Position numbers and translations under genes: made by a program | The notes under the pieces: model-generated | Seen by the model: only the letters and a program-made list of their open reading frames with translations | The model's database searches: none | Told to the model about the DNA's origin: nothing | IMG/VR virus record: IMGVR_UViG_2537561978_000005 | Source of the DNA: a virus | Taxonomy: Duplodnaviria > Heunggongvirae > Uroviricota > Caudoviricetes | Strand: one strand, 5' to 3' | Length of the DNA: 64,000 nt | Shown here: positions 163 through 10,250 of the stretch, one piece after another | Layout of the letters: the number at the start of each line of letters is the position of its first letter | Numbering within the stretch: the stretch's first letter is position 1

Positions 163-555
163 ATGGAACAAATCAGCAGCGCAGAAATTGCGGATATCAT
201 GATCAGGGCTGACTGCTATCTGACAGTCACTGAAATTACCACTCTCGCCAAAGAAAAATACCCTCATCTCCATGTTTCACGAGTAAGTGTAACTAACATC
301 ATTCGTCATTTTGTTCGTTCAAGCAGGGCAATCTGTGAGCTTGATGATCGTGTTTACCCACGAAAATACTGGTTGCATGGCCTGAACGGATATCAGTTCA
401 AGGTGCGTGGGCGAACCCCTGAATATGGCAGTTTACTGGTTAAAAACTGTAGCAGGAAATCAGTCGAACAGGCGCGAAAAGAGCAACGAGAGCTGGTGGA
501 CATGGCGAATAAGCTGTGGAATGCCGCCGTTAAAAAGCGTGGTGTTGCTTTATGA
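163..555 (+). CDS. small protein at the position of P1 lpa (late promoter activator); function unverified
   Basis: 130-aa ORF; stop overlaps pacA-like start (ATGA at 552-555); synteny lpa-pacA-pacB. Confidence 0.35.
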   Translation: MEQISSAEIADIMIRADCYLTVTEITTLAKEKYPHLHVSRVSVTNIIRHFVRSSRAICELDDRVYPRKYWLHGLNGYQFKVRGRTPEYGSLLVKNCSRKSVEQARKEQRELVDMANKLWNAAVKKRGVAL

Positions 556-1916
556 GTCTGGTTAATTGGGAGGAGCACCGCGCCCGCTTTATAGCGTTGC
601 GTGAAGAAAAAGGGATCACTGTAAAGGAATACTGTGAGGAGCATGGCCTTAGCTTCAATACAGCCAGAAAGCATCTCAATATGAAAAAAAATGAGGTGCG
701 GTCGCAGGTAAAGACAACAAAAAAAAGCACCAAATCACCTGAAAAAAAACGGGCGGGAAGAGCAACAAAAAAGCTGGAAGAGGGTGCAGAAAAAACAAAA
801 TTTACAGAAATTGACAATTCGCAGGGCGCAGGTTCTTTCCGAAGTATGCCGAGAAAGAAAACTTCGGATCATGAAAATAATTCAAATAATAACAATGAGA
901 TAAAAGAATCTGTCAGGAGATCATTGCGCGAAAAAATGGCGAAAATGATCCCCGAAGAAGATAAAAACGCCCCAAAAATTGAGGGATCTTCTGCAATGAT
1001 CCCTGACGGTGCTGTGCAGCGTGCCACATTGCCAACTACGAATGTGGCTCGCGATATGATGAAGAACGGCGCAGAAGAACACCTGCGGTTAGCAATTCAA
1101 ATGGCGCAAGAGCGCGCACTTCAGTATCAAAGCATTGTTGATCAGGAGGCCGAACGTCTACAGGCGGAAATAGACGCCTTGGGCGATAAAGAGCCAGAAG
1201 GAATGCACCCTGGGCAGCGCCTTCTCGGTCTAATCAGTGACGCGGCCTACTACATGAATGATTTTATCAGTAGGTTGGCAGCTATATATCAGTCCGAACA
1301 AAAGCTGCGACAGGGGGATGAAAAGCTTCGTCAGAGCGCTCGCCAGCAAGCATTCAAAGAGGCTGAGGCCAGAGAAAAACTCGAATTAGCACGCCTACAG
1401 GCCGAACAGCGTGGCAAAGAGATTGAATATCGCATTGGCGCTGACGCACGCGCAGCCAGAGTTATCGCCGCCGCTATACGTATGCGTGAGCGCGAGGAAC
1501 TGGATGATATCGGTGTTGCTGAATACATCGAGCGCCAGGGTGTCAGCGTCCCGGCTATCCTCGCGGCGCGCGCGGCGAAAGCTATCACTCTTCTCGAACC
1601 ACCTGTTTCTGACGTCAATGATGTTGATGATGAACAGCTGGACAAAGAGGCAAGGGAGTTTGCAACGCTTCAGGCTAACCATCCGCAATGGCTGGCAGAG
1701 CGCCGGGCGGATGTGGCAACCATTGTTGAAGAATTGGGGTGCGGAGATTACGACCGCAATGGCGAGCGTAAAGCTGGAGAATTCGAGGCCAACGACGAAG
1801 AGCTGGATATTGACCCTTCGGCAACGGCTGAAATTTACGGTGATTATGATGCATCTGATGCAGGGTATGACGCCGGAGATGATGATATCGCGATAGAACC
1901 GCCGGAGGATGATTAA
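552..1916 (+). CDS. pacA: terminase small subunit-like protein (PacA-like)
   Basis: 454-aa ORF translationally coupled (TAATG at 1914-1918) to large terminase; contains GATC-rich pac-like cluster. Confidence 0.55.
   Translation: MSLVNWEEHRARFIALREEKGITVKEYCEEHGLSFNTARKHLNMKKNEVRSQVKTTKKSTKSPEKKRAGRATKKLEEGAEKTKFTEIDNSQGAGSFRSMPRKKTSDHENNSNNNNEIKESVRRSLREKMAKMIPEEDKNAPKIEGSSAMIPDGAVQRATLPTTNVARDMMKNGAEEHLRLAIQMAQERALQYQSIVDQEAERLQAEIDALGDKEPEGMHPGQRLLGLISDAAYYMNDFISRLAAIYQSEQKLRQGDEKLRQSARQQAFKEAEAREKLELARLQAEQRGKEIEYRIGADARAARVIAAAIRMREREELDDIGVAEYIERQGVSVPAILAARAAKAITLLEPPVSDVNDVDDEQLDKEAREFATLQANHPQWLAERRADVATIVEELGCGDYDRNGERKAGEFEANDEELDIDPSATAEIYGDYDASDAGYDAGDDDIAIEPPEDD
867..1001. other. 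candidate pac site: five GATC hexamers (GGATCA, AGATCA, TGATCC, GGATCT, TGATCC) in 135 bp
   Basis: GATC at 867, 918, 947, 985, 998 inside pacA; P1 pac is a cluster of Dam-methylatable TGATCA/G hexamers within pacA. Confidence 0.4.
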
Positions 1917-3424
1917 TGGCTGGCGGGCGCAAGATTAAATGCGTCACCAGCGATCCACGCTGGCGCGATATGGTAATCAAATACCGCTACAACTTTACCC
2001 AGGCTGTAGTCGATATTTTTGGGATGTTCCCCTCCCACCAGCAGCAGCAGATCATTCAGTCAGTGCAGGAAACGGGGAGTAGGACGACCGTCACGTCCGG
2101 ACACGGAACGGGGAAGTCGTCCCTTACCGCGATGTTGCTGTTGATTTTTATGATCCTGTTCCCCGATGCCCGTGTCATCATTGTTGCTAACAAGATAGGC
2201 CAGGTAAAAACAGGCGTATTCAAATACGTTAAACAGTATTGGGCGAATGCAGTTAAGCGTCATGGGTGGTTGCAGACCTATTTTGTCCTCTCTGACACCA
2301 TGTTTTATGAGCGCTCCCGTAAGGGGATTTGGGAAGTTCTCTGCAAAGGTTATCGACTCGGCAACGAAGAAGCGCTGGCGGGGGAACACGCGGCACATTT
2401 GCTTCTAATTCTGGATGAAGCATCTGGTATATCTGATAAGGCGATCGGCGTAATGACCGGTGCTCTTACTGAAGAAGATAACCGGATGTTGATGCTATCC
2501 CAGCCAACAAGGCCAAGTGGTTATTTCTACGATTCGCACCATTCTCGAGCAAAAACCCCAGACAACCCGAAAGGGATCTGGACAGCAATTGTTCTTAACT
2601 CGGAAGAATCACCGTTCGTCACACCACAATTCATCAAGGAGAAGCTTCTGGAATATGGTGGGCGCGATTCTATTGAGTACATGGTCAAGGTGCTTGGTCA
2701 GTTCCCACGAGAAATTAACGGCTATTTGCTTGGTCGTGATGAATGCGATCGCTCTGCTCGCCGCAAGGTGTTGTTGGAGAAAAACTGGGGATGGGTGGCA
2801 ACGGCTGACGTTGGTAATGGGCGAGATAAGTCGGTCCTCAACATCTGCAAGGTATCAGGTCACAGGGATAAGCGGCGCGTTGTTAACTTTAAGGTAATGG
2901 AGATGCCTGGCACTATGGACCCATTGGCCTTTGCTGACTTCATATATAACGAATGTACGCCGGAAAAATACCCGAATATAACAATCGCGGTTGATGCTGA
3001 TGGTTTTGGTTCTGATACGTGTGCGCAGTTGGTGCGTCGTGGTGCGAACCCGGTACGTATTCGGTGGGGAAAACCCATGTTTGCGAACAAAGACAGGGAG
3101 CGATTTGTTAATCAGCGTGCCTACGCAAATATTATGGCGCGAGATGCCATAAAGTCAGGGCGTATGCGGATAGACAGTGACCCTAAAACGGCAGAGCAAG
3201 CGTCAAAAATCCCCTTTTTACTGAATGAAGAAGGGAAAATGGCGATGATGCGCAAAGAGCACATGCGGCAAAAGCTAAACATCAAATCGCCTGACCGATG
3301 GGATACCTACTGCTTCACTATGCTGGTGGACTATGTGCCTGCTAATGAAGATATTGGTGCCGAAATGGCAACTTTCCGAGATCAGGTTCTGGCGGATATC
3401 GAAATGCCGGATCTGGATATATAA
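1916..3424 (+). CDS. pacB: terminase large subunit (PacB-like)
   Basis: 502 aa; Walker A SGHGTGKS, Walker B LLLILDEAS, C-terminal acidic nuclease-type motifs ATADVGNG and IAVDADGFG. Confidence 0.8.
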   Translation: MAGGRKIKCVTSDPRWRDMVIKYRYNFTQAVVDIFGMFPSHQQQQIIQSVQETGSRTTVTSGHGTGKSSLTAMLLLIFMILFPDARVIIVANKIGQVKTGVFKYVKQYWANAVKRHGWLQTYFVLSDTMFYERSRKGIWEVLCKGYRLGNEEALAGEHAAHLLLILDEASGISDKAIGVMTGALTEEDNRMLMLSQPTRPSGYFYDSHHSRAKTPDNPKGIWTAIVLNSEESPFVTPQFIKEKLLEYGGRDSIEYMVKVLGQFPREINGYLLGRDECDRSARRKVLLEKNWGWVATADVGNGRDKSVLNICKVSGHRDKRRVVNFKVMEMPGTMDPLAFADFIYNECTPEKYPNITIAVDADGFGSDTCAQLVRRGANPVRIRWGKPMFANKDRERFVNQRAYANIMARDAIKSGRMRIDSDPKTAEQASKIPFLLNEEGKMAMMRKEHMRQKLNIKSPDRWDTYCFTMLVDYVPANEDIGAEMATFRDQVLADIEMPDLDI

Positions 3425-3451: not shown

Positions 3452-4489
3452 TTACCAGAGCTTCGCGGCGTACTGCGTTTGGGGGAATGTGTATCCGTAA
3501 CGTTCTTCGATTGCTTTGCCGTATTTTTTACGAGCTTCATTCAGTTTTATGCCGGTCAGGTCGTCTCCAGAGGCCATCATTACGTCTAACAATTCCAGAT
3601 CCATTTTATCCAGCCTTGCCATTGCTTCACGTGATGTACGTATCTTACGCTCAATGATATGGCGAATAGCCGGATCGGCATCCTCCAGCATCTTAGCGGA
3701 TTTCTGCTTAAGGCTTTCATTGCGAATATCGATGTTCCTTAAGATGTACGACTTCGCAACGTAGCTTGGCTGGTGTTTTTCCAGGTCACGAACACGATAT
3801 AAGTTAAAATCGCCGAGAAGGCTGCAAGGTACCGATTCGACGCCAGAATAAATTGTAATGCTCCGGCGCTCACCAACATTATTGACAACGGGGATCGTTG
3901 TCTTCGGTAGTCTTGCGAAAACCAATGCGCCATGTGCGCCAACTCTAAAGCGAGAAAGGGCATTGCTGCCTTCGATGTTTGTTGTCAGCACAACATCTGT
4001 ATATGCCTCTTTACGCGCCCGGTAGATCTCGCCTTCAGGCTCAGCTTCAAAGAAGCGCTGTTCTTCTTCAAGAGCACCTACGATTTGAGAAAAAACCCTA
4101 TTTTTCAGGCTTTTCTTTATGATTTTGTCGTATTTTTTGAGCAATTGTTCACGTGTAAATGTACGTGTTGTTGTAGCGCTTTGCACAACAACATGCGTGC
4201 TTTGATTGGTGTCCTCAATGATGAATGGGATCGGAGAATATACAGACTCAACAATGTTCGACGCTTTGCCGTCGGCATCGCGGCACATGTCAACGAAGGC
4301 TTTCCATTCAGCAAGACATTTTTCAGCTTCTTCTAATATGTTTTGGTCATGCGTTAATGCAACATGGCGGAATTCCTCGCCAGCATAACTGGTATCATGG
4401 AAAACAGAGTTTGCGACCACCAGCTCTTTCCACCGTTCAGCGGTTTGCAGGAACCGTTTGTACTCTTTCTCGATCGACTTCTTACTCAT
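3452..4489 (-). CDS. hypothetical protein at the position of the P1 c1/immC repressor gene; identity unverified
   Basis: 345-aa ORF convergent with pacB; operator-like motif immediately upstream; no motif I can assign. Confidence 0.55.
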   Translation of the reverse strand: MSKKSIEKEYKRFLQTAERWKELVVANSVFHDTSYAGEEFRHVALTHDQNILEEAEKCLAEWKAFVDMCRDADGKASNIVESVYSPIPFIIEDTNQSTHVVVQSATTTRTFTREQLLKKYDKIIKKSLKNRVFSQIVGALEEEQRFFEAEPEGEIYRARKEAYTDVVLTTNIEGSNALSRFRVGAHGALVFARLPKTTIPVVNNVGERRSITIYSGVESVPCSLLGDFNLYRVRDLEKHQPSYVAKSYILRNIDIRNESLKQKSAKMLEDADPAIRHIIERKIRTSREAMARLDKMDLELLDVMMASGDDLTGIKLNEARKKYGKAIEERYGYTFPQTQYAAKLW

Positions 4490-4698: not shown

Positions 4699-4732
4699 AT
4701 AACTTTAAATAATTGGCATTATTTAAAGTTAG
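4699..4732. other. lox-like site: 13-bp inverted arms ATAACTTTAAATA / TATTTAAAGTTAG around 8-bp asymmetric spacer ATTGGCAT
   Basis: 34-bp architecture and arms resemble loxP (ATAACTTCGTATA-8bp-TATACGAAGTTAT); 150 bp upstream of cre-like gene. Confidence 0.7.
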
Positions 4733-4883
4733 GCTATAATTATGGGTAGATGATCAGTATTGACATCACTGAAAATACGCGCCTCGAATCAAAGGCTTGA
4801 ATCTTGAAAATTAACTTATAGCTACCCTGTCATTTTTATATTTTTCGCGTAGCGTTATCTGTATATAGAGGTTAAATAGTTTC

Positions 4884-5912
4884 ATGAGTGAATTAATTAT
4901 CTCTGGCAGCTCCGGTGGTTTTCTGCGCAACATTGGCAAAGAGTACCAGGAGGCCGCAGAAAACTTTATGCGGTTCATGAATGACCAGGGGGCTTATGCG
5001 CCGAATACTCTGCGCGACCTCCGGTTGGTGTTTCATTCATGGGCGCGCTGGTGTCACGCTCGCCAGCTTGCCTGGTTTCCGATCTCACCAGAAATGGCCC
5101 GCGAGTATTTTCTTCAGCTGCATGATGCCGATCTGGCTTCGACCACCATTGATAAGCACTACGCCATGCTGAATATGCTGCTTTCGCATTGTGGCCTTCC
5201 GCCACTTTCGGATGATAAAAGTGTTTCTCTGGCTATGCGGCGCATCCGGCGCGAAGCGGCAACTGAAAAAGGCGAACGAACAGGCCAGGCTATACCGCTT
5301 CGGTGGGACGATCTGAAACTGCTCGACGTCCTGTTGTCCAGGTCAGAACGGCTGGTGGACCTGCGCAACCGGGCTTTTCTCTTTGTTGCATACAATACGC
5401 TGATGCGTATGTCGGAAATCTCGCGTATTCGTGTAGGAGATCTGGATCAAACAGGTGACACTGTCACGCTACATATTTCACACACGAAGACAATAACGAC
5501 CGCCGCCGGGCTTGATAAGGTGCTTTCCCGTCGCACTACCGCTGTGCTGAATGACTGGCTGGATGTTTCCGGGCTTCGCGAACATCCTGACGCAGTGCTG
5601 TTCCCGCCGATACACCGTAGCAATAAGGCCAGGATCACGACAACGCCCCTTACTGCACCTGCAATGGAGAAAATATTCAGCGACGCCTGGGTGTTGCTGA
5701 ATAAAAGAGATGCTACGCCAAACAAAGGAAGATACCGGACGTGGACCGGGCATAGTGCACGCGTCGGGGCCGCTATTGATATGGCTGAAAAGCAGGTGTC
5801 TATGGTGGAGATCATGCAGGAAGGAACCTGGAAGAAACCGGAAACACTTATGCGGTATCTTCGCCGTGGCGGCGTGTCTGTGGGGGCTAATAGCCGCCTG
5901 ATGGATTCGTAA
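4884..5912 (+). CDS. cre: Cre-like tyrosine site-specific recombinase
   Basis: 342 aa; aligns along its length with recalled P1 Cre incl. NRAFLFVAYNTLMRMSEISRIRVGDL, HSARVGAA, catalytic Y in LMRYLRRG. Confidence 0.9.
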   Translation: MSELIISGSSGGFLRNIGKEYQEAAENFMRFMNDQGAYAPNTLRDLRLVFHSWARWCHARQLAWFPISPEMAREYFLQLHDADLASTTIDKHYAMLNMLLSHCGLPPLSDDKSVSLAMRRIRREAATEKGERTGQAIPLRWDDLKLLDVLLSRSERLVDLRNRAFLFVAYNTLMRMSEISRIRVGDLDQTGDTVTLHISHTKTITTAAGLDKVLSRRTTAVLNDWLDVSGLREHPDAVLFPPIHRSNKARITTTPLTAPAMEKIFSDAWVLLNKRDATPNKGRYRTWTGHSARVGAAIDMAEKQVSMVEIMQEGTWKKPETLMRYLRRGGVSVGANSRLMDS

Positions 5913-5915
5913 ATT

Positions 5916-5930
5916 AAATTTCTAACACAT
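5916..5930. promoter_or_regulatory. operator-like motif AAATTTCTAACACAT downstream of cre
   Basis: TTTCTAACA core. Confidence 0.3.
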
Positions 5931-5985
5931 CTTTTTAGATTAACGCCTTTGCTGTAAAGTACCCTCGCCTATTTAGGAGGGTGCT

Positions 5986-6330
5986 TTGCAGAGTCAAATC
6001 ACGGAATCAAGACGCTTCAAGGTGGATGGTTACACCGTAACCTTCGCCGCTGGTGTTAAGAACAGTCATGCTGTCGTTGTGTTCGGCATCATGACCGGGC
6101 TTGAGGCCGTCCCTGTGTTTACCCTCGAAAAAAACTGGCGAAATCTGGAGGAAGCAGAAAGCTACGTCCGGAAAGTAACCATCATTGCCGCCGAAAAACT
6201 CCTGGCCCACTATCAGGAAAATTATCGCACTATGGTCGAGAAGATTAATCTCGCTTTCACTCGCCCCACTACCGGCTTTATTGCACCGGATACTAATGCC
6301 GGTCGATATCCTGCAAGGGGGTGTCGGTGA
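5986..6330 (+). CDS. hypothetical protein
   Basis: 114-aa ORF, TTG start with AGGAGGG RBS 5 nt upstream. Confidence 0.5.
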   Translation: MQSQITESRRFKVDGYTVTFAAGVKNSHAVVVFGIMTGLEAVPVFTLEKNWRNLEEAESYVRKVTIIAAEKLLAHYQENYRTMVEKINLAFTRPTTGFIAPDTNAGRYPARGCR

Positions 6331-6803
6331 AAACTTATTACCCATCTCTGAATTGTTACCCGTCTTCCTATCCAGAATTATCCGGGAAGCTGTTAGCTCT
6401 ATTAGCTAAAGCACCTACGGAATGGTTTAAGCCAGTCGTTATCAATCCACACTTCCTGGGTTACGGATCTGTTCGCACTCGTAACGAACTCAAAAACCTA
6501 CTGGCGCATGGATTCATTCGACACCGTGCCGGGAAAGGCTATCAGTTAGCGATTGCGCCAGAAGAGGCCGTGCGGCTATTCGCATATCGTGACAGCCAGA
6601 CAAAAACTCGGGTAATAGCTCAAATACTTCATAACGGCAGCACCTATGCCCGCCAGTTTGGCGGCGACACGTCGCAGTTCTTGCGGGCGGTGCGATCGCT
6701 GGATGAGCAAGGAGTTATTGAAAGTTCCTGTCTTCCTGTTCCTACCGTTCCACATATCAAACGTCGGGTTTACACCTTCACGCAGAGAGCTAAAAAACAA
6801 TGA
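6321..6803 (+). CDS. hypothetical protein
   Basis: 160-aa ORF; stop overlaps dut start (ATGA). Confidence 0.5.
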   Translation: MSVKTYYPSLNCYPSSYPELSGKLLALLAKAPTEWFKPVVINPHFLGYGSVRTRNELKNLLAHGFIRHRAGKGYQLAIAPEEAVRLFAYRDSQTKTRVIAQILHNGSTYARQFGGDTSQFLRAVRSLDEQGVIESSCLPVPTVPHIKRRVYTFTQRAKKQ

Positions 6804-7294
6804 TTTACGTAAAAGTGAAACGCCTACATCCGGCAGCAAAACTTCCAGCTTATGCCACCTCCGGATCGGCGGCGATGGATTTTGAGGCTGTTGAAATAAA
6901 ACCATGCGTCGATAGCAATGGTGCAATTTCCTCAAGCTGGTGGGTGTATACCGGACTGGCTATGGAGATCCCGCCCGGCTGGTGTCTGAAACTCTATCCG
7001 CGATCAGGATTGGGCTGCAAAAAACATACTCGCCTGGCTAACTGCGTAGGAATTATCGACTCCGATTATCGCGGCGAAATCATGGCAAAACTGATTACTG
7101 ATCCCGGCGGGGAAGGCGTTTGTCTCAAGCCTGGAATGGCTGTCATGCAAGGAATTTTTGAGCGTGTTGAACAAGTCTCACTAGTCGAGGTTGAGGAACT
7201 CAACGAAACGGAGCGTGGTGCTGGTGGCTTTGGTAGCACATCGGAAGGCCACTTTGAAATTAAGCGTTCACCGCTTCAGTACGAAAAGTTATAA
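6800..7294 (+). CDS. dut: dUTP diphosphatase (dUTPase)
   Basis: 164 aa; motifs RSGLG and GIIDSDYRGEI typical of trimeric dUTPases. Confidence 0.8.
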   Translation: MIYVKVKRLHPAAKLPAYATSGSAAMDFEAVEIKPCVDSNGAISSSWWVYTGLAMEIPPGWCLKLYPRSGLGCKKHTRLANCVGIIDSDYRGEIMAKLITDPGGEGVCLKPGMAVMQGIFERVEQVSLVEVEELNETERGAGGFGSTSEGHFEIKRSPLQYEKL

Positions 7295-7308
7295 GCAGAG
7301 AAAAGACT

Positions 7309-7749
7309 ATGAATAACATGGCAACGAAAGAGCTTTTTAAGTTCCGTCCCAAATACAAAGCTCACAAAAAAAATGGAACCACGGTCATCATTACGGATGA
7401 CAACGGCGTGATGATTAATCTTACCGGGAGCGTAACTATTTCTGCTGGTGGCATCACCACCCAGCAAGAAGAAATCGACCTTGAAGCAGCCGACTTTTCA
7501 GACGCGCTGATGTGGCTGAAGGAAGGCAAGAAAGTTGCTCGACGCGGGTGGAACGGCGAAAACCAATTCTGCTGGCTGGTTCCTGAAGGACAGTACCCGG
7601 CACGAATGGAAGCCATTAAGGGATATTTCCCCGGCGACCTCGTTCCGTATGGTGCTTATTTCGCCTTAAAAAATGCACAAGGTGTAGTTGTTCCGTGGGT
7701 GCCTTCAGTTGGCGACCTGCTGGCCTGTGACTGGTTTGTTGTGGAGTGA
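7309..7749 (+). CDS. small protein with a DUF2829-like module (family recalled to include Thoeris anti-defence Tad2); unverified
   Basis: 146 aa; ALMWLKEGKKVARRGW ... VPSVGDLLACDWFVVE; same module at C-terminus of 23238..24179 product. Confidence 0.45.
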   Translation: MNNMATKELFKFRPKYKAHKKNGTTVIITDDNGVMINLTGSVTISAGGITTQQEEIDLEAADFSDALMWLKEGKKVARRGWNGENQFCWLVPEGQYPARMEAIKGYFPGDLVPYGAYFALKNAQGVVVPWVPSVGDLLACDWFVVE

Positions 7750-7755
7750 TTTGAC

Positions 7756-8523
7756 ATGGAAAGCACTAAAACAATTCAATACCGCTTGCGTAATGGCCTG
7801 CTGGTGGCTGTTAACGCCGACATGTCACTGCCGTTTGACACGATTGAACGCACTATCATGACGTATCTCGGCTTTAATGAAGAGCTGAATGAAGAGCATG
7901 GCGTAGCTATATGGAGTGATGCAGACAGCGGCGTTCGTCGTTACATCACCGCCAGGGGCAAAGACTACTCTCTGGAAGAACTGTTTGCCCTTGCGCAGTC
8001 TTTCGAATGTGTAGCATTAGACCTGTTTAATGATCCTGCTATAGCGCAACGACTTATACGCGAGCTTGGGCTATCCGTTACACCAATTATATTTAAAAAT
8101 GGCAGCCTGACTGGCACATGGCGCGTAGAACGCATCTCAAACTACCTTCCATATAACCGACAGTTAAATGGAGTAATCTCCGGCGTTAACCAGCCCGTAG
8201 CGTGTGAAAATGTAAACCTAGTTGTCGCTGTTTTGGCAACCGCATGTCGTGTTATCGGTTTGGCTAAACAGGCATTTATTCATTTCCCAAATGGTGCAGA
8301 AGGTAGCGCAGAGATTATCGCGTGTGATTTCGAATTTACCTGGATGCTACGCGAATATCTGGACCAAACAGTATTCCGTGCCGAAGAACTGGATATGTAT
8401 ATCACGTCAACGATTCCAGACGATGTGCGAGCTGAAGCAATCGCTACAGCCAGGGCGAAATGCCGTGCGGCGATTGCAGAACAGGCCAAAGAAGAAGTTA
8501 AGGAAGTGGCAGATGGCGACTAA
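7756..8523 (+). CDS. hypothetical protein
   Basis: 255-aa ORF; 3' end overlaps next gene by 11 bp. Confidence 0.5.
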   Translation: MESTKTIQYRLRNGLLVAVNADMSLPFDTIERTIMTYLGFNEELNEEHGVAIWSDADSGVRRYITARGKDYSLEELFALAQSFECVALDLFNDPAIAQRLIRELGLSVTPIIFKNGSLTGTWRVERISNYLPYNRQLNGVISGVNQPVACENVNLVVAVLATACRVIGLAKQAFIHFPNGAEGSAEIIACDFEFTWMLREYLDQTVFRAEELDMYITSTIPDDVRAEAIATARAKCRAAIAEQAKEEVKEVADGD

Positions 8524-9607
8524 GAGCAATATTTATAAAGATCCGCGCTGGCTGTCGCTGGTGGAGAAATATAAAGACAATTGGGTACTGGCAGCAAAAG
8601 AATTGTTTGATATTGATTTAAGCCACCAGCAACAACAAATTGTTGAAGCTATACAGCCCAATAATGCAAAAGCTACTGTCACCACTCCGTATGGGATCGG
8701 ACGACCGCAAGTGCTTGCTGTTATTAGTACCCTTTATACGATTATGTATCCTGATTCCCGGACAGTAATTGTTTATCCAAAATCAAATGTTTGCAAAAGA
8801 GGAATTGTTGCATATGTGTGGCAATGTTGGGAGGCATTGCTGAAAAAACAACCTTTTATCATTGAGTATTTTAAGGTCGGTGATAGCGGTCTGATGTTCA
8901 ATGAATTTTGGGGAATGTGCTTTTGTAACTTCCGCCTTAACTATGAAGATAGCATTGCAGGTCACTACGCCGACCATCTTTTATTCATTATTGTGGATTC
9001 CGCACATATCAGCGATCGGGCATACAGCATTGTGTGGGCAAGCATGACTAGTGGTGATTCACGCATATTGCTCACTTCAATTCCGTCACCAGAGGAAATA
9101 GGCTTTTTTTATGATTCACATCATGGACGTGCTTTAGCTGAAGATAATCCGAGTGGTGTATATAAAGCCATTAAGCTGAGTGCGGAGGATTCACCATTTA
9201 TTACCCAAGAATATCTTGATCATTTTGCCGAAAGGTATGGCGGGCGAAATAGTGATGACTATCGTCGTATGATTCTTGGTGAGTTCCCTGGTATTAGGGA
9301 GGCTGTTCTTGAATCAGATATGCCGAAGACAATGCGCTTTTCGATGCCTGATGGTAGTGAATGGACAATACCATTACGAGTGATAGCCCGGCATCATGCG
9401 CAGCACCACGCCAAAAAACATGGCGTCACGACATTAGAATGGTTGAAATCGCACACCATTCCACTCTTCACTGCAGATCACAATGCTATCGTTGAGTGGG
9501 CAAAAACAATTCCGTGGGAGAATGTCGCTGAATACGCCCACATGCTAAAACCGCCGAAAGACAGGCAAGAAATTAGCTGGCTGACAGCAGAAAAAATCAT
9601 TGAGTGA
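8513..9607 (+). CDS. terminase large-subunit paralogue, ATPase-domain only, with degenerate Walker motifs
   Basis: 364 aa from ATG 8513 (AGGAAG RBS); clear homology to PacB N-terminal domain (DPRW, SHQQQQI, YFYDSHH, YGGR) but Walker A TPYGIGRP and Walker B FIIVDSA; no nuclease domain. Confidence 0.6.
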   Translation: MATKSNIYKDPRWLSLVEKYKDNWVLAAKELFDIDLSHQQQQIVEAIQPNNAKATVTTPYGIGRPQVLAVISTLYTIMYPDSRTVIVYPKSNVCKRGIVAYVWQCWEALLKKQPFIIEYFKVGDSGLMFNEFWGMCFCNFRLNYEDSIAGHYADHLLFIIVDSAHISDRAYSIVWASMTSGDSRILLTSIPSPEEIGFFYDSHHGRALAEDNPSGVYKAIKLSAEDSPFITQEYLDHFAERYGGRNSDDYRRMILGEFPGIREAVLESDMPKTMRFSMPDGSEWTIPLRVIARHHAQHHAKKHGVTTLEWLKSHTIPLFTADHNAIVEWAKTIPWENVAEYAHMLKPPKDRQEISWLTAEKIIE

Positions 9608-9612
9608 TAGTA

Positions 9613-9642
9613 AGAAGCCCGCCTGGTTGAGCGGGCTTCTTT
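9613..9642. terminator. bidirectional intrinsic terminator GAAGCCCGC-loop-GCGGGCTTC + TTTT
   Basis: 9-bp stem between convergent genes (8513..9607 and doc). Confidence 0.6.
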
Positions 9643-10023
9643 TCAAATATTGGAACCATATAGTTCACGTAGTTTTTTCGCTACTGAAGATACGGGGATT
9701 TCACCAGTTGCAGCCCCCACTGCAAGCTCCACCAGCACGGGATCATCATATACCTGTATACCGTTACGGCGTAGAAATAGCAGCGCACTGTTTAGCGCGG
9801 TACGCTTATTGGCATCATTGAATATATGCCCTCTCGCCGTAGCCACCAGGTAGGTGGCGGAGACTTCGAAAAGGTCGGTGATCTCTTCGTAGGCAACTCT
9901 GGCCTGAACTCTCCCGATAATGGCCTCTGCCCTACCCGGATCTGACATTCCCGGCAGGCCGCCGTAGCGGCTTATATTCGCATCATGAAGCGCAATAAGT
10001 TCTTCCGGTGATATATGCCTCAT
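9643..10023 (-). CDS. doc: Doc toxin (death on curing; Fic-family kinase)
   Basis: 126 aa nearly identical to recalled P1 Doc ([40 protein letters not shown]...). Confidence 0.95.
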
Positions 10024-10250
10024 TATCGGTTAACCAGTTCCTTGTTGGTGGAGTCCAGGGTGTCAAACAGGGATGCAAATTCGGCATCCAGCGCCGCTTT
10101 TTTGTAGGCTTCAAAAGTAGCCTTGCTGACAATTACTGCTGGCTCACGGCCTCTGCGGGTGATTTCAACCTCTTCCCCGGCTTCAACATTGTTGAGCACT
10201 TCAGAAAGGTTGCCGCGCGCGGTACGGAAGTTAATGGATTGCATAAACAC
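10023..10250 (-). CDS. phd: Phd antitoxin (prevent host death)
   Basis: matches recalled P1 Phd ([32 protein letters not shown]...); stop overlaps doc start (TAATG); start may be the 2nd Met (10244). Confidence 0.95.

Follow-up and report, generated by a model that had tools for sequence, protein, structure and literature searches.

The window, a 64,000-nucleotide stretch of DNA from a tailed phage (IMG/VR virus record IMGVR_UViG_2537561978_000005; Caudoviricetes), contains a gene, here called X, that encodes a relative of the terminase large subunit (TerL) PacB. Apart from X, the first 11 kb of the window match Escherichia phage D6 (MF356679) at 96-97% identity in megablast, and this identity makes the element a D6-like phage-plasmid of the P1 family. 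X closes a three-gene cassette, behind a Tad2-like gene and an isaA-like gene (Table 1). The start of X overlaps the isaA stop codon (8521-8523) by 11 nt, and the overlap is preserved in all three main clades of X, at 11, 14 and 8 nt. The genes from 4884 to 9607 are closely packed or overlapping, and a consensus scan of the window found no second promoter-like site on the plus strand ahead of X besides the one in front of dre. The gene packing and the scan together make it possible that the cassette is co-transcribed from that candidate promoter. The D6 counterpart of isaA, orf113, is annotated as 'similar to P1 gene isaA', and a hairpin similar to the one behind X comes after isaA in D6.

Table 1. 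Genes and sequence features around X, in window coordinates
Feature	Position	Strand	Basis or remark
pacA	552..1916	+	
pacB, functional terminase large subunit, paralogue of X	1916..3424	+	annotated pacB/terminase in D6 and P1
c1-type repressor	3452..4489	-	
Sigma-70-like promoter candidate TTGGCA-16-TATAAT, before dre	4713..4740	+	consensus scan, 11/12
Cre-like recombinase (dre)	4884..5912	+	
Two small open reading frames (ORFs)	5986..6803	+	
dut	6800..7294	+	
Tad2-like/DUF2829 gene, 146 aa, opens the cassette	7309..7749	+	
isaA-like gene, 255 aa	7756..8523	+	phrog_2326, E 1e-133
Hypervariable segment: IsaA acidic tail and X ATPase-like domain	8496..9258	+	comparison with locus L004
Shine-Dalgarno sequence of X, AAGGAAG, 6 nt ahead of ATG 8513	8500..8506	+	
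X, pseudo-terminase gene, 364 aa, stop TGA 9605-9607	8513..9607	+	ORF list
X N-terminal domain, aa 1-262, TerL/PacB ATPase-like fold including lid region	8513..9298	+	
Degenerate Walker A, TTPYGIGRP replacing (V)TSGHGTGKS	8681..8707	+	alignment
Degenerate Walker B, LLFIIVDS replacing LLLILDEA	8978..9001	+	alignment
Lid, C-terminal part of ATPase domain, aa 191-260	9083..9292	+	terminase-invariant residues kept
C-terminal domain of about 100 aa in place of nuclease domain	9305..9604	+	profile matches
Hairpin terminator AAGAAGCCCGC / GCGGGCTTCTT, separating X from convergent doc	9612..9641	.	sequence and terminator scan
doc and phd, convergent to X	9643..10250	-	

The N-terminal part of X corresponds to the motor half of PacB. 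Residues 7-259 of X align with residues 10-264 of the PacB of the window with 96 identities over 258 positions (37%; E 6e-57, BLASTP), and the motifs DPRW, SHQQQQI, FYDSHH-RA, DNP-G, SPF-T and YGGR are common to both proteins, a similarity far above chance. The AlphaFold2 model of X, built from a 78-row alignment, has a mean predicted local distance difference test (pLDDT) score of 85.7, with values above 90 across most of residues 10-190 and 270-350 and lower values in the lid (residues 191-260, pLDDT 58-68). Three fold searches with the whole model returned terminase or helicase matches only, driven by the N-terminal domain, and X carries an N-terminal ASCE (additional strand, catalytic glutamate) ATPase fold homologous to TerL. 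The initial annotation had aligned X with the N-terminal half of PacB and described it as an ATPase-domain-only paralogue with degenerate motifs. Both statements agree with the BLASTP comparison, the residue alignment, the model and the fold searches, every motif that it had quoted was recovered, and its proviso that the similarity might be spurious is answered by the E value.

Searches of profile and family collections place X less precisely. X matches phrog_5902, a family of unknown function, with E 8.6e-165 (residues 4-363 on profile positions 2-358/359). PacB also matches the whole 358-position profile (E 3e-152), though it lacks the small C-terminal domain; phrog_5902 seems to mix true PacB N-terminal halves with the X family, and a match to it cannot separate the two. 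A sequence search of the PDB with X gave no significant match, and scans of Pfam, NCBIfam and PADLOC assigned neither X nor IsaA nor the C-terminal domain of X to a family. The X clades show a flat 33-37% identity to P1-, D6-, Acinetobacter- and Vibrio-type PacB, the PacB of their own element included. We considered whether each X clade tracks the PacB type of its own element, and rejected this, as the identities are flat and two X alleles accompany an identical PacB half. The idea that IsaA and X are a duplicated PacA/PacB pair was likewise rejected, as IsaA has no similarity to PacA.

Of five features that define a terminase large subunit, X has the fold and lacks the other four, namely Walker A, Walker B, the nuclease domain and the operon position. 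Specifically, it has no RNase-H-like nuclease domain with acidic catalytic residues, and instead of standing beside a small-subunit gene it follows isaA, 5 kb from pacA-pacB. Because these four defining features fail, X should not be annotated as a terminase; it appears to be a pseudo-enzyme that branched off from TerL and has a new domain arrangement.

To describe the active site, nine X-family sequences were aligned with 118 true PacB-type terminases. In the PacB of the window, Walker A (GHGTGKS), Walker B (LILDEAS) and the acidic motifs of the nuclease domain are all intact. Walker A residues G59, T62 and K64, invariant in 118 of 118 terminases, are P, I and R/Q/H/E in the X family; at the lysine position, a Citrobacter form has Cys and a form with reversed domain order has Thr (both described below). 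Walker B residues D161 and E162, invariant in all 118 as well, are V/T/A/M/I and D/E/N across the X clades, the pair reading VD, TE, AE, MD, IN, VN or, in the Citrobacter form, PN. In total, eleven positions that are invariant in the 118 terminases are replaced in every X sequence (G59, T62, K64, K100, G143, H152, D161, E162, G165, N183 and the C-motif Gln190), and they mostly vary from clade to clade. Shifting the register reveals no lysine or acidic residue common to the whole X family, which settles the proviso of the initial annotation that intact catalytic residues might sit in another register. That annotation had read Walker A as degenerate, in agreement with the alignment (TTPYGIGRP versus SGHGTGKS). 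For Walker B its reading of degeneracy stands but the loss of the glutamate alone does not: the aligned change is DE to VD, in which Val takes the place of Asp, and Asp that of the catalytic Glu. The solved TerL ATPases of T4 gp17 (2o0h) and Thermus phage P74-26 (4znl/4zni) are active motors with the canonical P-loop lysine and the Walker B Asp-Glu pair, and X has neither.

The lid, by contrast, is retained. All X clades keep G197, F199, H203, G215, P228, G243, G244, Y250, G256 and F258, none of which varies among the 118 terminases, and also Y200 and H204 (98% in terminases), which makes 12 kept positions altogether; S224 is the only terminase-invariant lid residue replaced in X. Neither the Q-motif glutamine Q40 nor G63 varies in X or in any of the terminases. 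Judged from these alignments, X has lost the residues for ATP binding and hydrolysis and kept the ATPase fold and the lid residues.

Nothing in the nuclease half of PacB aligns with residues 262-364 of X. The initial annotation had described the nuclease half as absent and replaced by unrelated sequence; the absence is confirmed, and the replacement is indeed unrelated to PacB, but it is a defined and widespread phage domain of about 100 residues. An exhaustive HMMER search found 225 cluster representatives of this domain (50% clustering) at E<=1e-3, the majority of which consist of this domain alone and have about 100 residues; word-indexed homologue searches had given 7 clusters for the whole of X and 3 for the C-terminal domain, so that the exhaustive search of representatives was needed. 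The family has the pattern MPDGS-W-VP...IA..RA...PLF...WA...W, and the domain in X (residues 264-350) matches the C-terminal end of phrog_17928 with E 2e-13. In the model (pLDDT 81-97 here) it folds as two strands, then three helices, then two more strands. The domain reaches no Pfam threshold (DUF5076 scores 14.2-16.3 bits against a cut-off of 25), and its profile matches PDB 3ic3 weakly (E 0.07), so a relation to DUF5076 would be distant at best. We regard it as a candidate new phage domain family, large and without a Pfam model.

The other occurrences of the domain lie in recombination and replication modules. In Xanthomonas phage CP2 it forms part of ORF36 (the phrog_17928 protein), fused to a DUF1351 protein and adjoining Erf, and it is also fused to DUF1351 in two further proteins (P0040 and P0147). 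In Bordetella phage PHB04 the domain gene (ATI15725) comes after genes for RecE and an SMC-like ATPase, and in the P1-like Cronobacter phage JK004 (gene_35) it comes after a DnaB-type helicase gene. DUF1351 genes take a Mu-Gam-like gene position upstream of erf/sak4-ssb modules (PMC8093625). The metagenomic contigs with standalone copies are too short for context. The proteins of CP2, PHB04 and JK004 share the domain of X and carry it standalone or fused to DUF1351, whereas in X it is divergent, with several family-conserved motifs lost (NNMNW and GWxNG, for example), and is fused to a dead terminase domain.

Dead PacB paralogues also occur in other architectures. In locus L017 (6001-6741 and 6738-8384) one of them, P0021, has the reversed order: the small domain forms the N-terminus, and a PacB-like ATPase whose Walker A reads GSGTGTTT comes after it. 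It is interrupted by a 548-residue ORF on the reverse strand that, from its sequence, looks like a Tn3-family transposase, and an intact copy of P0021 was not found. Genes for a RecA-dependent (Ref-type) nuclease and AbiH lie near P0021. A second architecture is an ATPase-only protein of 263 residues on the P1-like Citrobacter freundii plasmid NZ_CP114569 (locus L022, 3974-4765), directly after a Ref-family nuclease gene. Its Walker A reads TTPSGIGCK and its Walker B FFICPNA, and its identity is 40% with PacB and 38% with X. This rare protein (2 records) forms a fourth clade of the dead PacB paralogue. Another ATPase-only form (P0007) is truncated, as is P0003.

The ATPase-like domain of X varies sharply between close relatives. 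We compared the window with another D6-like plasmid (locus L004). At the protein level, the C-terminal half of PacB and C1 are 100% identical, the recombinase and residues 1-225 of IsaA are 99% identical, and the C-terminal domain of X and Doc are 98% identical, whereas the N-terminal domain of X is only 53% identical. DNA identity is 92-100% up to position 8496, 22-78% within 8496-9258, and 92-100% again from 9259, and dS is 1.42 in the N-terminal domain of X versus 0.10 in its C-terminal domain. The ATPase-like domain is thus swapped as an allele on a constant backbone. Because the backbone is constant while this domain is 53% identical, its variation is not driven by the element's own PacA and PacB, and the pattern suggests that the N-terminal domain is a conflict-related specificity module. 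The acidic C-terminal tail of IsaA varies with the X allele (EVKEVADGD in clade A, longer and D/E/A-rich in clade B), and a third tail type is found in D6, which carries no X. This variation may reflect either the position of the tail inside the exchanged segment or a contact between IsaA and X.

X is widespread and its reading frame is maintained. Among 749 plasmid records with a PacB-type match in tblastn, 163 also have a full-length X, and these copies fall into groups at 95% identity or more (34), 60-80% (10) and about 51% (about 120). A protein identical to X belongs to a public 'hypothetical protein' cluster of 392 member sequences. The X clades are 48-53% identical to each other, compared with 59% between D6-type and P1 PacB, and X is an accessory gene that evolves faster than PacB. 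The ratio of nonsynonymous to synonymous substitution rates (dN/dS; Nei-Gojobori) is 0.08-0.33 over well-diverged pairs, at about 0.2-0.3 in the N-terminal domain and 0.08-0.2 in the C-terminal domain, and reaches about 0.6 only in two pairs that differ by about 20-27 substitutions. X contains no frameshift and no internal stop. The initial annotation had called it an intact gene with a ribosome-binding site and had named a frameshift as the sign of a pseudogene; the intact frame, the AAGGAAG 6 nt before the ATG and a dN/dS well below 1 all side with an intact gene. Because dN/dS is well below 1, the frame is intact in 163 records, and the ribosome-binding site and gene overlap are conserved, X is under purifying selection and is not a pseudogene.

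The gene is absent from P1, as the initial annotation had suspected, and from D6 as well. In D6, isaA runs straight to the terminator and is followed by pdcA; in P1, isaA is followed by IS1 and the unrelated isaB. The D6 pdcA gene (198 bp) lies between the isaA terminator and doc (locus L001, 3781-4062), and there is none at 9608-9653 of the window. The difference between the window and D6 here is a replacement, with X gained and pdcA gone, not a simple insertion. We considered P1 IsaB as a remnant of an IS1-split X and rejected it, as tblastn finds no similarity in the isaA-IS1-isaB region of P1. That interval is a region of difference among P1-like plasmids (PMC6906374). In one metagenomic entry for this protein (P0002; window 8222-9607) the start is placed 74 codons upstream inside isaA, giving 438 residues and the name 'Terminase large subunit', and a homologue in GenBank MH422554 (locus L002, 5995-7089) is also labelled 'terminase large subunit'. 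The family alignment supports ATG 8513 as the probable start. Searches of the literature for paralogues or decoys of terminases, for isaA, for D6 plasmid prophages and for Tad2 in phage-plasmids turned up no description of X.

Measured against PacB of the P1/D6-family phages (gp110 in P1), X is homologous over the N-terminal 260 residues at 33-37% identity and has in common with it the helices at the N-terminus (DPRW...SHQQQQI) and, in the lid, the motifs G-FYDSHH, NP-G, SP, YGGR and Y...G-FP. Unlike PacB, it has degenerate Walker A, Walker B and C-motif, has neither the nuclease domain nor the acidic C-terminal tail, does not lie beside pacA, is accessory rather than core, and evolves faster.

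The cassette has a constant order of Tad2-like gene, isaA and X, with X always last, and isaA is directly upstream of X in 11 of the 11 isaA-linked loci that we read. It follows dut in D6-like elements; in P1-like elements it follows ssb, beside hxr-ddrB-ddrA-darA, of which the dar and ddr genes serve anti-restriction. With two different backbone positions, it appears to be mobile. Relatives of the Tad2-like gene are classified as Tad2-like in Pfam (PF11195) and as 'DUF2829 domain-containing protein' in RefSeq, and a survey that counts Tad2 among the anti-defence genes detected it in 93% of the D6-like phage-plasmids and in 56% of the P1-like ones (bioRxiv 10.1101/2025.09.12.675607). The Tad2-like protein has 146 residues in the window and D6, compared with 220-233 in most related plasmids, and alignments with loci L004, L006 and L014 break at 7311/7370 and pick up at 7426. 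The window copy, with its N-terminal part missing or replaced, may not be a functional sponge. P1 IsaA (locus L003, 4570-5532) has 320 residues compared with 255-268 elsewhere, and its homology begins only after about 59 codons. Between ssb and isaA, P1 lacks a DUF2829 gene; the extra length of P1 IsaA might be a remnant of a lost Tad2-like gene.

The explanation that we prefer, and hold only tentatively, is that X is a mimic or decoy of the terminase motor domain, most likely serving anti-defence. X would derive from the motor (ATPase) half of a P1-family PacB and, without the residues for ATP and without a nuclease domain, would be unable to package or cut DNA. Because the catalytic residues and the nuclease domain are lost, it would act through binding only. 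Its gene would belong to an accessory operon, behind one of the Tad2-like (anti-Thoeris) family and with translation coupled to that of IsaA, with its ATPase-like domain exchanged as a hypervariable allele on otherwise identical plasmids. Produced early, such a decoy could occupy a factor of the host or of a rival element that recognises the terminase ATPase domain, for example a terminase-sensing immune receptor, but would not present the active site and nuclease that a real terminase has. Sensing of terminases has a precedent, as bacterial pattern-recognition immunity (Avs) has the large subunit among its established targets (PMC11564622). A role in conflict is suggested by the combination of a cassette with an anti-defence family, mimicry of an immune-sensed protein, and allelic diversification that PacB does not match; the identity of the partner and the anti-defence role we infer. 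The recurrence of the dead motor domain in other architectures, reversed in P0021 and ATPase-only in Citrobacter, both with dead motifs, is consistent with the decoy explanation.

Several points weigh against it. A role of X in defence or anti-defence gets no support from any family in PADLOC, Pfam or NCBIfam, and the PADLOC-DB defence-system models gave zero matches for X, IsaA and the Tad2-like protein. In the EVADES preprint, which covers 268 anti-defence proteins, the passages containing the words 'terminase', 'decoy' or 'Avs' mention no terminase mimic. Avs3 reportedly reads the terminase active-site residues, ATP and the nuclease site, and because X lacks all of these, binding to an Avs3-type sensor is not implied. 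The Tad2-like neighbourhood is guilt by association only. A sharp allelic replacement can arise by recombination of diverged lineages without diversifying selection. Finally, the C-terminal domain otherwise occurs in modules for replication and recombination, and the decoy explanation makes no use of this.

A role in packaging interference or regulation, which the initial annotation had proposed, is possible, if doubtful. X could bind PacA, PacB or the portal via its retained terminase surfaces, entering the pentameric motor as a dead subunit or titrating the small subunit, and could thereby block or slow pac cleavage and packaging by rival P1-family phages, or time or limit the packaging of its own element. 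The terminase-invariant lid residues and the N-terminal helices that X keeps would suit such contacts, and the variable N-terminal domain could match rival terminase types. ATPase-defective gp17 doped into the T4 motor assembles without ATP hydrolysis and lowers DNA engagement, packaging velocity and encapsidation success, impairing packaging without always stopping it (PMC8589836). The doped T4 subunits are engineered full-length point mutants, whereas X arose naturally as a diverged paralogue without a nuclease, and that it assembles into any motor is hypothetical. Satellites such as Staphylococcus aureus pathogenicity islands (SaPIs) and phage-inducible chromosomal islands (PICIs) interfere with helper terminases: SaPI Ppi and PICI Rpp are binding-only proteins that redirect or block packaging via the phage terminase. 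However, Ppi and Rpp are not TerL homologues, target the small subunit, and are encoded by satellites, not by phages. Furthermore, X is equidistant (33-37%) from all PacB types, its own included, so that no self/non-self logic is visible; two very different alleles stand beside an identical PacB half; and the entire C-terminal half of PacB is missing from X. The X-bearing records MH422554 and MH445380 were deposited as phage genomes, which would suggest that X does not abolish the packaging of its own element. In P1-like elements the cassette follows ssb, and because the P1 ssb promoter carries a C1 operator, expression from a resident prophage is argued against; the P1 C1-operator consensus itself has zero matches in the window. 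The Tad2-like neighbour, for its part, points to anti-defence at least as strongly as to a packaging role.

An accessory role at DNA ends, or in replication or recombination, we consider unlikely. Here the dead RecA-like fold would be a scaffold for DNA or protein, the C-terminal domain would tie it to recombination or end-protection machinery, and X might handle DNA ends made at pac or on injection. This agrees with the company that the C-terminal domain keeps elsewhere (DUF1351 and Erf, RecE with an SMC-like ATPase, a DnaB-type helicase), with the Mu-Gam-like position of DUF1351 genes (PMC8093625), and with the places of the P1-like cassette after ssb and of the ATPase-only clade after ref. 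But the ATPase-only forms do without the C-terminal domain altogether, the copy in X has lost family motifs, no DNA-binding motif was identified in X, and the hypervariability of the N-terminal domain would be left without a reason.

It is very unlikely that X is still a nucleoside triphosphatase with an unconventional active site. The invariant Q40 and G63 would fit such an enzyme, as would some clades in which a lysine stands one residue further along (GIGQKT, GIGHKS, GIGCKH) and the position of the catalytic glutamate is acidic; however, X of the window reads GIGRPQ and IIVDS, neither residue is conserved family-wide in any register, and all eleven invariant active-site positions are replaced. 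That X is a decaying duplicate without function is scarcely credible, for although the catalytic residues are lost, P1 and D6 lack the gene and truncated forms exist (P0003 and P0007), the frame, the ribosome-binding site, the gene overlap and the lid residues are kept, dN/dS is well below 1 in both domains, and independent domain architectures have arisen.

Returning to the decoy explanation, its generalised form, in which the pseudo-terminases of P1/D6-family phage-plasmids are hypervariable dead motor mimics that blind host terminase sensors or poison rival motors, is rather doubtful. In tailed phages, TerL counts as an essential hallmark enzyme present in a single copy, and it is a major target of bacterial pattern-recognition immunity. 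A copy mislabelled 'terminase large subunit', as X sometimes is, can mislead marker-gene phylogenies and counts. The C-terminal domain of X marks out a sizeable family of phage domains, so far uncharacterised, with links to recombination modules. X itself is present in about a fifth of P1/D6-like plasmids, which are found in clinical Enterobacteriaceae, and points to a motor fold recruited for a non-enzymatic role. If X does act as a decoy or poison subunit, it would represent a new principle in phage counter-defence or inter-phage competition and a possible natural tool to probe motor assembly, and, as a decoy of an immune sensor, it would be the first viral mimic of the virus's own conserved 'pattern' protein directed against bacterial pattern-recognition immunity.

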